From Planctomycetota bacterium (GTDB lineage: Bacteria > Planctomycetota > PLA2 > JAEUHO01): DNA of 64,000 nucleotides. A model generated the notes under the pieces. That model made no database searches. It saw nothing but the letters and a program-made list of their open reading frames with translations, and was not told where the DNA came from. The stretch lies in NCBI GenBank assembly GCA_965223505.1, contig CBDCWP010000038.1, forward strand, positions 230,055-294,054, in the 5' to 3' direction. The position numbers and the translations under genes are program-made. This document shows, piece after piece, positions 58,428 through 64,000 of this stretch (its first letter is position 1; every line of letters starts with the position of its first letter).

Positions 58428-59795
58428 TCAGCGCCGCTCGCGGCCGACCGCCGGCGGATGCCCCAAGTCCCCGCTCGACTTCGGATCGAGCTTCGGCGGG
58501 ATGCGCCACGTGTCCTCGCCGTCACGCCAGGGGTCGTGCGGCCCGCGCGCTTCGCGCTCGACCTCCGACAGCGGTTCCGCACAACACGGCTGCAACGGCG
58601 GCCGCTGCTTCTCGAGCGGCTTGTCGTCCGAGAGCGTCGTCAGGCCGCGTGCCGGCCGCGGTGTCACGATCCGCGCCCGCACCAACACCAGGAGCTCGGT
58701 ATCGATGCACTCCGAGTCCCGCGCCGACAGGAGCGCGTCGACCAGGGACAAGCCCTCGAGGCGCGGCAGGCCGCGACGGTTGCGTGTGTTGCGCCGCAGG
58801 TGCAGTCCGCCGATCAACAGCGGCTCCCGGTCTCTGACCGTCACACGCGTCGTCACCTGCCGGCTGCGCAGGTTGAGCTGCGAGACGGGCGCGTTCGGCT
58901 CCTCCGACGGCTCGGCGATGCGGAACCACAGGTCGAGATCCAGGACGGCATGGTCGTCGGCGACCCGAACGGGCGTGACCCGCAGGCGCACGCCGACCTC
59001 GCGGGTCGACGTCAGATCGATCGTCGGGTTCCCGTTGCTCACACGCACCTGGGGCTGCGGAAGCGACTCGGTGGCCGACATCTCGGCCGGCCGCCCCTCG
59101 ACGCACATCAGGTTCGGCCAGCCGAGGAAGTGGGCTTCCCCGCGCTTCGAGAGCATGCGCAGCGTCCATTCCCACGATCCGCCGAGGGTGTTGTCGTCGC
59201 CGAAGGTCAGGGTGGTGCCCTCGAAGGGCCGCACGCCCGTCACCGTCGACGCGAGATACGCGTCCGGATCGAAGTCGAGCGCGGTGCCGCGATAGAGCGT
59301 GCTGCCCGGGTTCGCCACGCCGTCCTTGTCGTAGAGCAGGTTGGCACCGCTGCCCTTGCTCTTGTGGGCGCTCACCTCCGACAAGAGAACCGACACGGAC
59401 ACCCCGCGTGTCGGCGCATCGAAACGCGCGAGCACGTTGCGCGCCTCCGCCAGCTGCGGGCGCGGTCCGGCGAGAAGGATGCGGCTATGGACCGGCGCGC
59501 CCGGCTTCTGCCGCGGCCCCGTCGGCAGCGGAACGACGCGCGGCAGCACCAGCTGCGCGGTCAGCACGCCTTGTTCGTACCCCTTCCTCCCCTTCATCCA
59601 GTCGTCGAGCTCGGCGAGCAGCTCGGACGCGGGCCGAAACTCGGGCTGAAAGATGTGCCGCACACGGTTCTCGCCCTCGAAGGCGGTGCGCGTCGGTGGG
59701 TGCCACTTCGGCGGAGGCCGCTTGGGCTCGTCGGCGTCCGCGTTCGGCGCGAGCAGCGCGACGAGGAGAGCGGAACACCGGAAAACGCTATGCAA
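58428..59795 (-). CDS. Short secretin (type II/III secretion outer-membrane) family protein
   Basis: Signal peptide, one N-domain-like segment (RILLAGPRPQLAEARNVLARFDAP), VSVLLSEV, EVGVRLRVTP, VTVRDREPLLIGGL, TELLVLVRARIV. Confidence 0.78.
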   Translation of the reverse strand: MHSVFRCSALLVALLAPNADADEPKRPPPKWHPPTRTAFEGENRVRHIFQPEFRPASELLAELDDWMKGRKGYEQGVLTAQLVLPRVVPLPTGPRQKPGAPVHSRILLAGPRPQLAEARNVLARFDAPTRGVSVSVLLSEVSAHKSKGSGANLLYDKDGVANPGSTLYRGTALDFDPDAYLASTVTGVRPFEGTTLTFGDDNTLGGSWEWTLRMLSKRGEAHFLGWPNLMCVEGRPAEMSATESLPQPQVRVSNGNPTIDLTSTREVGVRLRVTPVRVADDHAVLDLDLWFRIAEPSEEPNAPVSQLNLRSRQVTTRVTVRDREPLLIGGLHLRRNTRNRRGLPRLEGLSLVDALLSARDSECIDTELLVLVRARIVTPRPARGLTTLSDDKPLEKQRPPLQPCCAEPLSEVEREARGPHDPWRDGEDTWRIPPKLDPKSSGDLGHPPAVGRERR

Positions 59796-59823
59796 AGGAT
59801 GGACTCCGACTCGAGACGCGGAG

Positions 59824-60267
59824 CTACTTGAGGTTCTGGATCACCTCGTCCGTTCGCTCGGGAACGTCCTTCGCTTCCTTTTTCGCCTTGCTCACGGCGC
59901 CGTCTTCGGCGATCAGGTCGTGATCGAGATCGCGCGCGGTCTGCTTGACGGCCTCCGTGAAGCGGGCCGAGGCCTTCTTCATCAGGAAGTGGTAGCGAGC
60001 GTCTTTGTCGTCGAGCCCCTTCTTGACGATCTCCTTGTACTCGGGGATGTGACGGTAGACCTCGTCACTGGAGATCATCGCGGGTCTCTGGAACAGGCGG
60101 GCGTTGCCGTAGTAGACCTTCGTCGGGTCGGTGCATCGGTAATCGCCCACGCCGGCCGACGCCGTGCCGGTCAGCAGGGCAAGCACAGCGAGGAATGCGA
60201 CGGAGCCCCGCAGTGCGCGCAGCCCCCCCTTGATCGATTCGTGTCCGTCACTTGATTCCGCCCCCAC
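59824..60267 (-). CDS. Small secreted protein, Skp/OmpH-like with a shortened coiled coil
   Basis: Signal peptide; C-terminus AVKQTARDLDHDLI...TDEVIQNLK resembles the OmpH C-terminal pattern; start uncertain. Confidence 0.55.
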   Translation of the reverse strand: MGAESSDGHESIKGGLRALRGSVAFLAVLALLTGTASAGVGDYRCTDPTKVYYGNARLFQRPAMISSDEVYRHIPEYKEIVKKGLDDKDARYHFLMKKASARFTEAVKQTARDLDHDLIAEDGAVSKAKKEAKDVPERTDEVIQNLK

Positions 60268-60331
60268 GGAATGGCCACCGCCGCCGCCAGTGTATGCACG
60301 CTACCCCTCGTGTCAGGGGCTCACCTCATTG

Positions 60332-60357
60332 GACGAGCCACAAAGCGAAACGTTTCC
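60332..60357 (-). promoter_or_regulatory. Candidate ECF sigma factor promoter
   Basis: GGAAAC-N16-CGTC upstream of the Skp-like/secretin gene pair. Confidence 0.55.
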
Positions 60358-60640
60358 CTACTTCCGCCACAAAGTTTGGATGAGGTTCACCCGCGAGCGC
60401 GCCCGGGCGGGCACGCCACACACAGGAGGATGACCTCGCGGCGGAAGCTGGTCCAAATCGCGTGCCCGTCGAGGCCCGCTCCCCTTGGAGTCGGATCGAA
60501 TCGCGCTCGGTTGAGCGCTGGGCCCTGAATCTCGCGGTTTCGTTTCGTCGTTGCATGGCCAGGCGCGCAATTCCACGTGCGCTGCGGCTCGCATTCCGCC
60601 AGATTCCGCCCCATCGTCAGCTGCCTGCACGCGCCACGAA

Positions 60641-60679
60641 TCAAAAGGAGGCCCCGACCCTCGCGAGGATCGGAGCCCC
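60641..60679 (-). terminator. Intrinsic terminator
   Basis: Minus strand GGGGCTCCGATCCTC-GC-GAGGGTCGGGGCCTC followed by CTTTTGATT; the G-U pairs form only on this strand. Confidence 0.8.
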
Positions 60680-60849
60680 AGTGGAAAGCACCTGGCGGGG
60701 TTCAGGAAAAAAGGCCCGTCCGACCCGTTCCCGTTCGGCCTCGCGCCCTGTTCCCGCTTACCTCCGTCTTGGCCTGAGCCTAGTGGGTGGTGACCAGATC
60801 TTCCCGCGACCAGGACCACTCGAACCATTCGAGCGCCCGTGCCCCGGTA
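60641..60849 (-). ncRNA. Candidate ~200-nt structured non-coding RNA (family not recognised)
   Basis: Bounded by a TTGACT-N16-TAGAGT promoter and an intrinsic terminator; 5'/3' pairing GGGGCAC/GUGCUUU, GGCG/CGCC, GGUUC/GAACC; repeated GGA motifs; no credible ORF. Confidence 0.55.
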
Positions 60850-60855
60850 GCCCCC

Positions 60856-60938
60856 ACTCTATCGAAACTAACTAGTTAGTCAAGTTCACATTCCTGGTAA
60901 CTTTCCAGAAAGTCAATCGTCGGGATCGCGCGTAGGAT
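60856..60938. promoter_or_regulatory. Divergent promoters with two palindromic operators
   Basis: ACTAACTAGTTAGT (60867-60880) and ACTTTCCAGAAAGT (60900-60913), both AACT-N8-AGTCAA; minus-strand -35 at 60878-60883 and -10 at 60856-60861; plus-strand -10 TAGGAT at 60933-60938. Confidence 0.75.
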
Positions 60939-60944
60939 CACGGC

Positions 60945-61892
60945 GTGCCCAAGTCGAAATTCGCCGCCGCCCTGAAGCGCGCCCGCAAGCGCGCCGGCCT
61001 TTCCCAGGTGGCGCTCGGCAAGAAGGCGGGGCTAACAGGCTCCTACATCTCCATGCTGGAGTCGGAGCGCAAGCCGCCGCCGCGGCCCAAGGTCATCACG
61101 CGGCTCTCCAAGGTACTCAACCTCTCCGAGAAGCACATGCAGGAGCTCGCTGCCGTCGAGCGCTCCCCCGCCCCCATTCGGCAGCGCCTGGAGGAAATCG
61201 ACGAGGAGAAGGGCGCCGTCGCCCGGACGCGGGACCGCATCCTGACGACGACGTTGTTTCACATCGCGCAGCGCCACGGCCACGGCAACCCGTTCGGCGA
61301 CTTCCTCGATCTCTCGCCCGGCCAGCGCACCCTCGTCGGCCGTCTGCTCGGACGGGCGCGCACGGTGCGCGACCTCGACGAAGCCGAGTCCAAGTCGTCG
61401 CAGTTGCTCGAGGACGCCTCGCCCGACGAACGGGAGATGCTCGCCAAGGTCCTGCCCGAGGTGCTGTCGAAGGGTGCGCCCGCAAGGGAAAAGGGCGAGG
61501 CGGCCCGCTCGCGGCGCAAGCCGAGCTCGGACAAGACGCCGCCGCTGCCGGTCTACGCCGACCTGGCCCGCGGCGAAGAACCGGTCGACTGGCTGGTCGT
61601 CGACCCGCAGCTGTGGCACGAGAAGGCGTTCCTCTGGCGTGTGTCCGGCGACGACTACTTCCCGCGCATCGAAACCGGTGACGACCTGCTGATCGATCCG
61701 CTGGCCGAGCCGAAGAGCGGCGACCTCGTCGCGTTCACCCACGGCGGCAGCGATCTGGTTCGAACGCTACAGCGATCGGGCACACAGGTGCGGCTCGACG
61801 CGCCCCGGCCCGACGTTCCGCCGATTCGCATGAAGGCCACGGTGTTTCGACCGGCCGGCGTGGTCGTCTGGATGTGTCGCGGTCTCAGATGA
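60945..61892 (+). CDS. XRE-family HTH regulator with a degenerate S24 (LexA/CI-like) C-terminal domain
   Basis: LKRARKRAGLSQVALG...YISMLESE HTH; RVSGDDYFPRIETGDDLLIDP...SGDLV S24-like fold. Confidence 0.85.
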   Translation: MPKSKFAAALKRARKRAGLSQVALGKKAGLTGSYISMLESERKPPPRPKVITRLSKVLNLSEKHMQELAAVERSPAPIRQRLEEIDEEKGAVARTRDRILTTTLFHIAQRHGHGNPFGDFLDLSPGQRTLVGRLLGRARTVRDLDEAESKSSQLLEDASPDEREMLAKVLPEVLSKGAPAREKGEAARSRRKPSSDKTPPLPVYADLARGEEPVDWLVVDPQLWHEKAFLWRVSGDDYFPRIETGDDLLIDPLAEPKSGDLVAFTHGGSDLVRTLQRSGTQVRLDAPRPDVPPIRMKATVFRPAGVVVWMCRGLR

Positions 61893-61909
61893 CCCGCGGC
61901 GCGCGTGCG

Positions 61910-63298
61910 CTACTTCTGTTCGTCGAGCCACTGGAGCCACGACTCGGCTTGGGTGCGACCGTCTTCGTCGGACGCCGGCGCGATCTCGAGGAAGCGCTTC
62001 AGGTGACGGCGCGCCCCGGCGGCGTCGCGCAGCGCGGCGGGGGTGTCCGGGTCGGCCAGGAGGGCGCCGAGCGCCAGGTGCGCTTCGGCGAGAGAGTCGT
62101 CGAGCGCGAGCGCCTCTTCGTACGCACGCTTCTCCGCGGCGATGTTGCCGCCGCCCTCGCGGGCGAGCAGCCCGAGGTTGTATCGGACGGCTGCGTCCTT
62201 GGGCGCGAGGCGCGCCGCCTGACGAAACGCATGCCGCGCCTCCTGCATGCGGCCCTGCGAGGCGTAGATCACGCCGAGGTTGTAGTGCGCGCGGTGAAAG
62301 CGCGGGTCGGCCCGGATGATCTCTTCGAACACCGCGATCGCGCGTTCCATGTCGCCCCGGTGAACGTGCACGATTCCGATGTTGTTCTCGGCGACACGCA
62401 GGTCGGGATTGCTTCGCATCGCGGCGGCGAGGTGCATGAGCGCGTCGCGGTCCATGCCGAGCTGGTCTTCCACGACGGCGAGGTTGTTCAGGATGGCGGA
62501 GGCGTCCGGCCGCATCTTCAGCGCGCGCAGATACAGGGTGCGGGCGTCTTCCCAGCGCCGCGCCGCGGCCGCGCGCGTCGCCTTGGCCGACAGGGCGCGC
62601 ACGCGAATGTCGATCGACGCGCCGGGCCGCTGGGCGAGCTCCTGAAGACGTTGATAGGTCTTCTCGTCGTTCAGATCGGGATCCGAGAGCAACGCGAGGT
62701 TGAGCACCGGCGCACCGAAGTTCGAGTCCAGCTCGGCCGCGCGCGCAAATGACGCCGCCGCGGCGTCGACCTCGCCGTTCTTGAGCTGCACGGCGCCGAG
62801 GTTGTTGTGCGCCGCCGCGTGGTTGCCGTCGATCTGCGTCGCGCGCTCGTAGGCCTGGCGCGCATCGCGCATGCGGTTCAGCCGCTCGAGGGCGACACCG
62901 CGGTTGTTCTGCGCGTCCGCGTACTTCGCGTTCAGTGTCGCGGCCAGCTCGAACGAACGCAGCGCCTCTTCGACGTCGCCGAGGTCGAGCAGCAGCGTTC
63001 CGAGGTTGTTGTGCGCGATGGCGTCGCCGGAGTCGAGCCGCAGTGCCTGCCGGTAGGCGGTGATCGCGGACGACTTGTCGCCGGACTGCGAAAGCACGTA
63101 GCCACGCACCCGCCACGCGACCGCGCTTTCGGCGTGCGCGTCGATCGCGCGACGGCTTTCTTCCAGCGCGCGCGGCATGTCCGAGCGGCGCAGCGCCTGA
63201 TAGGCCTCGAGCGCCGGCGCCGGAACGTCCTCGGCGAAGGCGGGCGGGACCGCGATCAGCGCGATCGCGAGCACGAGAATGGCGGGGCCCTTCCCCAT
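61910..63298 (-). CDS. Secreted TPR-repeat protein
   Basis: Signal peptide; about 10 TPRs (AHNNLG, AQNNRG, AHYNLG). Confidence 0.9.
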   Translation of the reverse strand: MGKGPAILVLAIALIAVPPAFAEDVPAPALEAYQALRRSDMPRALEESRRAIDAHAESAVAWRVRGYVLSQSGDKSSAITAYRQALRLDSGDAIAHNNLGTLLLDLGDVEEALRSFELAATLNAKYADAQNNRGVALERLNRMRDARQAYERATQIDGNHAAAHNNLGAVQLKNGEVDAAAASFARAAELDSNFGAPVLNLALLSDPDLNDEKTYQRLQELAQRPGASIDIRVRALSAKATRAAAARRWEDARTLYLRALKMRPDASAILNNLAVVEDQLGMDRDALMHLAAAMRSNPDLRVAENNIGIVHVHRGDMERAIAVFEEIIRADPRFHRAHYNLGVIYASQGRMQEARHAFRQAARLAPKDAAVRYNLGLLAREGGGNIAAEKRAYEEALALDDSLAEAHLALGALLADPDTPAALRDAAGARRHLKRFLEIAPASDEDGRTQAESWLQWLDEQK

Positions 63299-63335
63299 GG
63301 CGTCTAGAGTGCCGTCCGATCGGGGATTCGGAAGC

Positions 63336-64000
63336 TCAATTGTCGGAAGTCGCCGTGCGAAGCGCGTCGAGGACCTCGTCGATGCGGCGGCGGCCGATCT
63401 CGACGGCCAGGGGCGCCGGTTGCGCCGCGTCGAAGTGAGCGGCGTTCGGCTTCCAGTCCACCCAATAGAACACCCCGGCAGCCTCGCGCGTTCCGGCATG
63501 GTCTTTCAGGAAGGCCTTGGTCAGACGCCGAACTTCGTCGCGCTGAACGTCGAGCGGCAGCCGGCCGCGAATGTCGCGCAGGTCGGCCAGGTACGCCTCG
63601 AACGCGCGCGCGGCCTTGATGTCCCCGACACGAACGCGCCGGTCGCCGCCACATCCGACGCAGGCGCGGGCGCCGAAGCAGACCTGGCACTCCACCTCGT
63701 CCTTCGATCCGAGCGTCGCGAGCTCGATGCCAGTGCCGCCGCAATGCCCGCAGCGCCCGCGACCGATCGTCTCCAGGTACGCCGTCGCCGCCTCCACGCT
63801 GATCGACAACGCCGTCGCGACGTTGGCGGCCGCCGCCTCCTTGCCCATGGCGGAGACCAGACCACGCAGGTGCTCGTCTTCGAGCGCGGACAGGCTGTAT
63901 TCGGAGATCGGACTCGCTTCGTCGGGCGCGACGCTCCAATCGAACTGGGCATTGCACCCGGCGCACTTGCTGCTGAAGTCGTTCACCTCGGCCATGCACT
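63336..64000 (-). CDS. Hypothetical Cys-rich zinc-binding protein (probably 5'-partial)
   Basis: CAGC, CGHCGGTG, CQVCFG, CVGCGG motifs; frame is open to the window edge. Confidence 0.65.
   Translation of the reverse strand, partial: CMAEVNDFSSKCAGCNAQFDWSVAPDEASPISEYSLSALEDEHLRGLVSAMGKEAAAANVATALSISVEAATAYLETIGRGRCGHCGGTGIELATLGSKDEVECQVCFGARACVGCGGDRRVRVGDIKAARAFEAYLADLRDIRGRLPLDVQRDEVRRLTKAFLKDHAGTREAAGVFYWVDWKPNAAHFDAAQPAPLAVEIGRRRIDEVLDALRTATSDN

Follow-up and report, generated by a model that had tools for sequence, protein, structure and literature searches.

A CI-type regulator and a candidate divergent small RNA predicted to pair with exbD leaders in Planctomycetota

The locus

The window analysed here, a stretch of 64,000 nucleotides, is the end of contig C38 of a planctomycete genome (G000; 5.15 Mb, 92% complete). 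Near its right-hand end, a gene for a CI/LexA-like regulator stands back to back with a predicted small RNA, and two operator-like palindromes lie between them. The features are as follows.

60641-60850, minus strand: predicted small RNA of ~210 nt, its 5′ end placed by reference to the −10 (covariation in an alignment of 21 homologues)
60641-60679, minus strand: intrinsic terminator hairpin and T tail (covarying among homologues, with two-sided changes at 5 of 6 modelled pairs)
60683-60807, minus strand: long domain closed by stem P2, 60807-60794 with 60695-60683 (12 pairs, 11 with two-sided changes, 95% paired)
60713-60740, minus strand: apical stem-loop with a 4-7 bp stem and an invariant, purine-rich loop of ~20 nt (invariant columns; stem in 23 of 23 same-family RNAs)
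60718-60727, minus strand: predicted 10-nt seed (exact complement before exbD1; in all 23 RNAs it opens more readily than the median 10-mer)
60809-60848, minus strand: 5′ hairpin P1, whose 5-nt loop is conserved (two-sided changes at 5 of its 6 modelled pairs; 98% of cells paired)
60856-60883, minus strand: sigma-70-type promoter of the RNA, −35 at 60883-60878 and −10 at 60861-60856 (spacing conserved in orthologous loci)
60865-60882, no strand: operator 1, an 18-bp palindrome over the −35 and spacer of the RNA promoter (31.1 bits, best matrix match in the genome)
60898-60915, no strand: operator 2, a weak 18-bp site that covers the −35 position in the regulator promoter (9.8 bits)
60933-60938, plus strand: −10 hexamer of the predicted leaderless regulator promoter, which has no canonical −35 (sequence; many orthologues have it ~6 nt ahead of their start codon)
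60945-61892, plus strand: regulator gene, 315 aa (Pfam, AlphaFold model, Foldseek and VIA-align)

The neighbours of this switch are secretin, TPR and housekeeping genes, with no phage genes among them. The DNA of the locus is confirmed by three sequencing runs of one study. Two of these runs carry one extra base at window position 60222, near the start of a small secreted-protein gene whose true start may differ from the listed frame. This gene (59824-60267, minus strand) encodes a 147-aa exported protein of no convincing family, and 36 of 48 loci, drawn from three families, have a homologue next to the RNA. Upstream of it are a conserved direct repeat (60593-60610, minus strand; 21 of 27 loci) and, ~140 nt further on, a motif at 60454-60466 (minus strand; 13 of 27 loci) that we take to match the sigma-54 −24/−12 consensus. 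Together with a secretin-like gene at 58428-59795, the small gene likely forms an enhancer-driven operon.

Relatives of the locus were sought across the phylum. Family codes are used below, where f1 is the host's own family, f2 a sister family of the same order, and the others further families of the phylum.

The regulator

The regulator comprises a Cro/C1-type helix-turn-helix (HTH; residues 6-68), a helical middle region (about 76-177) and an S24/LexA-type C-terminal domain that Pfam PF00717 recognizes above its cut-off. An AlphaFold model (mean pLDDT 88.8, pTM 0.43) places ~100 helical residues between the HTH and the S24 domain. The best structure matches from Foldseek and VIA-align were the C-domains of LexA, lambda CI and 186 CI and the N-domains of the 434 and P22 repressors. 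The LexA C-domain, for example, aligned over 117 residues with Z 15.3 and rmsd 2.2. The middle region gave no informative Atlas match (best 0.78), and the structure-search lists were filled by HTH and S24 domains.

The S24 domain has lost both catalytic residues, a feature beyond the earlier note on this DNA. When aligned with the genome's own LexA, Asp237 and Arg273 of the regulator occupy the catalytic Ser and Lys columns, and Ser is missing from its column in the 23 listed rows of a 45-row alignment. By this sequence comparison the Ser-Lys dyad for self-cleavage is gone and the protein is predicted to be protease-dead. The regulator is not the genome's LexA: it scores 31.9 bits against TIGR00498, which has a cut-off of 111, a separate LexA is encoded on contig C44, and the operator matches form no coherent DNA-repair set.

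Regulator matches, some of them partial, occur in 25 of 28 f1 genomes and 10 of 11 f2 genomes. A profile search of the phylum found matches at E 1e-12 in 54 of 401 genomes, the weaker of these being HTH-only or S24-only. In a midpoint-rooted tree of 40 rows picked to cover families, one 7-row clade (100/100) keeps the serine motif in 6 of 7 rows, and the motif is missing from all 22 extractable rows among the remaining 33. Cleavable CI/LexA proteins are widely spread, and it is for this reason, rather than from the rooting, that change is read as running from cleavable to dead.

Operators and promoters

Both 14-bp palindromes reported earlier lie where they had been placed, 33 bp apart; that at 60867-60880 is perfect, whereas that at 60900-60913 has perfect arms but two central bases that do not match. 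Their shared outer consensus occurs exactly twice in the 5.15-Mb genome, both times here. The part that is conserved, however, is not this outer consensus but the inner arms of an 18-bp palindrome (60865-60882). The leftward sigma-70-type promoter was also read correctly, being one of 2 promoter-like matches in 59500-64000 against 0.1 in shuffles. The same holds for the leaderless promoter of the regulator, whose −10 ends 6 nt before the GTG at 60945 in a layout that recurs in many orthologues. The second palindrome does occupy the −35 position of that promoter, but only as a weak version of the first.

An 18-bp palindrome overlaps the leftward −35 beside 29 orthologues, and the first site reaches at least 17 bits in 25 of the 29, scores that are circular since the operator matrix was built from these first sites. 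Conservation beside orthologues, proposed in the earlier note as a check, was found for the divergent RNA and the first operator; a second site of at least 9 bits at 30-41 bp spacing was present at only 12 of 29 loci. It is the second site that is the stronger in G018 and two metagenome loci. Operator 1 is kept beside orthologues in f1, f2, f17, f35, f45 and f96. We infer that the operators are binding sites of the regulator.

A structured RNA family

The leftward transcript is predicted to end at the intrinsic terminator seen previously, now confirmed as a 14-pair hairpin (60679-60648) followed by a T tail. As had been stated, it holds no credible open reading frame: G000 has no start-to-stop frame with a ribosome-binding site, and a small peptide product was rejected on finding no frame common to the relatives. 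A covariance model of the RNA, termed R1, matches the window at 60639-60856 with 151 bits.

Taken alone, the RNA of the window has no advantage in folding over its shuffles (z −1.24), and the case for structure rests on covariation. Across an unfitted alignment of 21 sequences, a 28-pair structure has 92% of cells paired and two-sided changes at 21 of 28 pairs, figures to be read with the knowledge that the helices come largely from RNAalifold on the same 21-sequence alignment and that related genomes are not independent. None of 500 shuffles scored as high, and slid controls gave 38-56%. G-U pairs fix the RNA strand. Within this structure, the P2 domain holds a variable side hairpin as well as the apical loop, and the P1 loop is also present in families f35 and f96.

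The element is present at all f1 loci that have upstream DNA. Of the 28 f1 genomes, 22 have a single strong R1 match; the training set of the model included 20 of these. Among the f1 genomes with no R1 match, the regulator is missing from G005, G021 and G024 and is a mere fragment in G007, G012 and G017, at a contig end or in an incomplete assembly. R1 also matches 5 of 95 metagenome and viral loci, 4 of which have the regulator. None of 15 pattern matches in viral DNA was a full-length RNA. A 15-nt core pattern followed outside the family was discarded: the 12 loci examined were unrelated coding DNA, and most metagenome matches and all viral ones were chance.

At ten f2 loci an RNA lies at the same place with a different invariant core, consisting of three other invariant blocks. 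Four f35 loci have a shorter RNA with the P1 loop and a core intermediate between those of f1 and f2. R1 scores the f2 and f35 RNAs weakly or not at all, so the kinship of the f1 and f2 RNAs rests on position and a short motif. The element is likely a real, uncatalogued small RNA (sRNA) family under a non-cleavable CI-type regulator, and comparison across relatives supports the earlier suggestion of a conserved regulator-sRNA module in a chromosomal setting free of phage genes.

Known RNA classes do not account for the element. Rfam searches at gathering and E-value thresholds returned no relevant match, and ARAGORN found nothing in the window. (Elsewhere in G000, at least 11 tRNA genes lie on one strand of contig C40, at 191174-192297.) The tmRNA, SRP RNA and RNase P RNA were each found elsewhere in the genome above cut-off. 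A CsrB/Rsm-type sponge was set aside, as a search for CsrA (PF02599) in 6 genomes, each 90% complete or more, found it in none. Hfq was not found in 5 of 5 genomes searched.

The element is probably not 6S RNA either, given no RF00013 match at the locus and a 6S-like rod elsewhere in G000. RF00013 detects 6S RNA in 10 of 11 f2 genomes but in 1 of 28 f1 genomes. The rod-folding RNA of G000 (C34:209761-209960; L074:262-461, plus strand) scores 13.6 bits, below cut-off, has a promoter-like site and a terminator, and sits in synteny with the normal 6S of f2. It seems that f1 has a divergent 6S, missed by RF00013 in 27 of its 28 genomes. With this rod at the syntenic place, the switch RNA was not taken for the missing 6S.

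Predicted pairing with exbD leaders

The first clue to a target was a second pattern match in G001, antisense before an exbD gene. In G000 the seed complement lies at about 68410-68401 on the minus strand of C44, between exbB and the ribosome site of exbD1, and ends 20 nt before the exbD1 start codon. The operon, unlinked to the switch, encodes a secretin, two TPR proteins, exbB/tolQ, three exbD/tolR and a further secretin. This predicted exbD target is new relative to the earlier note.

The exact 9-mer site is present in 14 of 20 f1 exbD1 leaders and in 0 of 11 f2 leaders, counts to which the non-independence of same-family genomes applies. One-base variants occur in G004, G006, G008 and G024, and G005 and G010 have no site. 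The site is the only widely common word in the otherwise variable exbD1 leaders of f1. Its background in G000 is low: the 9-mer occurs in 2 of 3,898 gene windows, one of them that of exbD1, and the 10-mer in 1 of 3,898 (contig-edge genes being left out, 3,898 of 3,912). The exbD1 matches at L133 (G016), L139 (G024) and L140 (G006) each contain one in-frame TGA, reflecting possible recoding or breaks.

A different solution is found in f2. There the leaders carry complements of the three invariant f2 RNA blocks, in antiparallel order, in 7, 8 and 6 of 11 cases against 0, 1 and 0 of 20 in f1. The 6- and 8-nt f2 blocks alone have a background of 124 and 47 of 3,898 windows, and the joint pattern 3. 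Paired changes occur within the family: G029 has one base changed in both RNA and site, and in G037 a G run and a C run are shortened together. Mean duplex energies are lower for cognate than for crossed pairs (−33.0 versus −27.7 and −41.3 versus −35.0 kcal/mol), and the cognate duplex is stronger than 95% of those with shuffled leaders in no more than 9 of 16 and 8 of 10 genomes. Extra exbD copies, the second and third, carry sites of 9-16 nt in G001, G008, G011, G013, G014 and G017.

The presence of the switch and that of the site coincide imperfectly. G005 and G034, in which neither regulator nor operator was found, also lack their own family's site. Neither regulator nor RNA was found in G021 and G024 (94% and 88% complete), yet the former keeps two sites and the latter a near-site. 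Conversely, G010 has the RNA and no clear site, and G031 has an f2-type RNA and no site. The exbD1 leader of G005 (L137) carries one block of the f2 site despite its f1 membership, beside its want of a regulator, operator or f1-type site.

A prediction fixed beforehand, that long complements would be found upstream of exbD in other families, failed in f35 (0 of 11 upstream regions) and held in f96 for 1 of 10 (G293 exbD2, 12 nt), giving 1 success in 21 across the two. Half of the invariant f1 loop and the central f2 block are unused by the exbD1 site. No second common target was found, the counts of the central-block pattern in f2 and f35 being no higher than control. A search of G000 for a wider target set showed no excess at 8-10 nt; at 11 nt there were 5 windows against a mean of 1.0 (1 of 149 shuffles). 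One 20-of-22-base complement, on contig C11 of G000, lies inside a Tad-pilus coding region and is likely chance. On balance we consider it quite probable that the RNA pairs with exbD, a confidence that is the sum of those given below to its repressing and to its activating the gene.

Relatives with other divergent partners

Likeness to a phage CI/Cro switch had been remarked on from the sequence of the window, and the relatives take it beyond likeness. In f45 and f89 (three loci), the same operator precedes a small divergent HTH gene of 76 aa, and the regulators, which fall in the 7-row clade, retain the catalytic serine motif. In other lineages the partner is exbD itself. The operator-covered promoter drives an exbD pair directly in G054, and in 3 of 3 genomes of f96 what it drives is an RNA-like leader followed by exbD. 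In G063 the regulator faces a TPR gene whose product is 23% identical to the one encoded before exbB. Families f51, f58, f62 and f67 show other partners or no operator.

Two further arrangements were noted. In f51 the regulators at L196 (G095) and L207 (G119) face a short, terminated RNA-like element unrelated to R1, with operator-like sites in the transcribed part. Opposite the cleavable relatives at L214 (G412) and L217 (G079) stand a sigma-factor-like HTH gene and, after it, a gene for an ABC-type ATPase, which make up another conserved set of partners.

These loci can be arranged as a history, which we judge as apt to be right as wrong. A CI/cro switch would have been domesticated as the controller of ExbD in a secretin-linked proton motor, its partner passing from cro to a spare exbD, then to an RNA leader and finally to a free, Hfq-independent trans-acting sRNA; self-cleavage would have been lost, and seed and target rewritten at least twice. 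Such a passage from CI/cro-like switch through cis leader to trans sRNA would be a rare series.

Proposed mechanism and alternatives

Our leading reading, held with slightly less than even confidence, is that a protease-dead CI-type regulator represses the ~210-nt RNA through an operator over its −35, and that the RNA loop pairs just upstream of the Shine-Dalgarno (SD) sequence that precedes exbD1 and extra exbD genes, lowering translation. The RNA would be transcribed from the operator-covered promoter, and the regulator would bind the operators as a dimer and hold the RNA off, with operator 2 letting it set its own leaderless promoter. Some signal or partner, not RecA-driven self-cleavage, would lift this repression, the input perhaps being sensed by the middle region or by the cleft of the dead S24 domain. 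Pairing would then begin as a loop-to-UTR contact without Hfq. The duplex beside the ribosome site would block 30S loading, so that ExbD would fall and exbB, upstream of the site, would be spared.

The same circuit and pairing may instead activate exbD, a credible reading that we nonetheless think less probable. Much as GlmZ does for glmS, the RNA would capture a C-rich stretch and keep it from folding over the ribosome site, or from attracting Rho or a nuclease. With the site blocked, the ribosome site is freed in 8 of 8 f2 leaders, by 2.55 versus 0.50 kcal/mol (with only 2-6 control windows each), and in G000 itself by 1.9 kcal/mol. Moreover, the site never overlaps the SD or start codon, and the long sites 40-65 nt upstream of extra exbD genes in G001 and G017 are outside the ribosome footprint. 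Activation would also keep one logic in every lineage, with ExbD rising on derepression as it would where the promoter drives exbD directly (G054, f96); repression would flip the sign relative to those lineages. Ribosome-site release in f2 and the direct wiring in f17 and f96 thus favour activation.

Position speaks for repression. A distance of 0-10 nt separates the end of the exbD1 site from the SD in 12 of 14 f1 cases, and it is only 0-2 nt in 3 of 14 f1 and 6 of 8 f2 leaders; most sRNAs that pair at such a position repress. The f1 leaders have no conserved anti-SD hairpin: blocking the site frees the ribosome site there no more than control blocks do (0.86 versus 0.45 kcal/mol; 8 of 14), and in a longer window release exceeds 1 kcal/mol in 12 of 27. 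On the closeness of the site to the SD and this lack of a conserved anti-SD fold in f1, repression is slightly favoured over activation.

It is improbable, though worth weighing, that the RNA is real and under the regulator but mainly binds a protein or another target, the exbD match being secondary or lineage-specific. Pairing does not explain the large covarying scaffold, the conserved P1 loop or the unused invariant blocks, and the f35 RNAs occupy the same locus with no exbD site. On the other hand, two families have reached two different matched RNA-site solutions, CsrA was not found in the 6 genomes searched, and a 6S role is unlikely.

We regard as very improbable the idea that another transcription factor reads the palindrome and that the RNA is not controlled by its HTH neighbour. 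Such an operator is indeed missing upstream of the orthologues in f58 and f62. However, the operator accompanies the regulator across families with quite different divergent partners and was found in none of the 5 searched genomes without an intact regulator match. In addition, G000 has no second strong site that would mark another regulon, and no wider regulon is evident there, as the next-best operator matches form no set and none lies before exbB. Least probable of all is a cis-acting attenuator or DNA feature for the leftward genes in place of a free RNA; the related f96 element is the leader of an exbD gene and the same small secreted-protein gene comes next in most loci, but a strong terminator lies ~370 nt before that gene, no alternative fold is evident, and the gene has its own conserved upstream motifs.

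Comparison with known systems

The closest architectural parallel to the switch is the lambdoid CI/cro pair. Shared with it are a repressor of HTH plus S24 fold, a leaderless promoter for that repressor, and two operators between divergent promoters. The locus described here differs in being a single-copy chromosomal gene with fixed neighbours and no phage genes, in the loss of the catalytic Ser and Lys from its regulator and the ~100 extra helical residues there, and in having an RNA rather than cro as the divergent partner. Phage 186 CI is a non-cleavable example of such repressors.

Regulator genes that stand back to back with a base-pairing sRNA are known in GcvA-GcvB, SgrR-SgrS and OxyR-OxyS. 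As in these divergent pairs, the sRNA here is predicted to act near the ribosome sites of unlinked genes. GcvA, SgrR and OxyR are activators of other families, and GcvB, SgrS and OxyS need Hfq. By contrast, the present system has a CI-type repressor, no Hfq found, a seed placed in the loop of a large scaffold, and no Rfam match. With 6S RNA (RF00013) the element shares its size, a long irregular stem and a single copy per genome, and differs by the extra 5′ hairpin, the open apical loop, the operator-covered promoter and the failure to match the model.

On the target side, GlmZ offers a precedent. According to a published account (PMC4152352), this ~200-nt multi-stem RNA has its pairing site inside an operon, before the SD of the downstream gene glmS, which it uncouples from the preceding gene. 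It acts by opening a defined anti-SD hairpin, depends on Hfq and is itself regulated through decay (PMC4152352). Our system departs from it in having no conserved anti-SD hairpin in f1, control that is apparently transcriptional, and no sequence likeness. The predicted target operon also resembles the PVC motor clusters made up of a TPR gene, one tolQ-like and two tolR-like genes, whose function is called unknown and whose regulation goes unmentioned in the available portion of the source (PMC12204202).

A literature search of titles and abstract openings, beyond which supplements might list such an RNA, returned no described Planctomycetota base-pairing sRNA, no link between an sRNA and exbD, and no such module. 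If the proposed circuit is true, this base-pairing sRNA would, as far as our searches reach, be the first of Planctomycetota for which regulator and target are both defined, and a switch for the supply or exchange of a motor subunit. It points to switching of the PVC-type ExbB-ExbD motor and suggests control of ExbD apart from ExbB within one operon. The proposed circuit is complete and testable, from regulator, operator and RNA to seed and target, and reporters in E. coli suffice without culturing the host. Set beside the systems above, its logic is of a known kind, and its parts and proposed route of origin are new.
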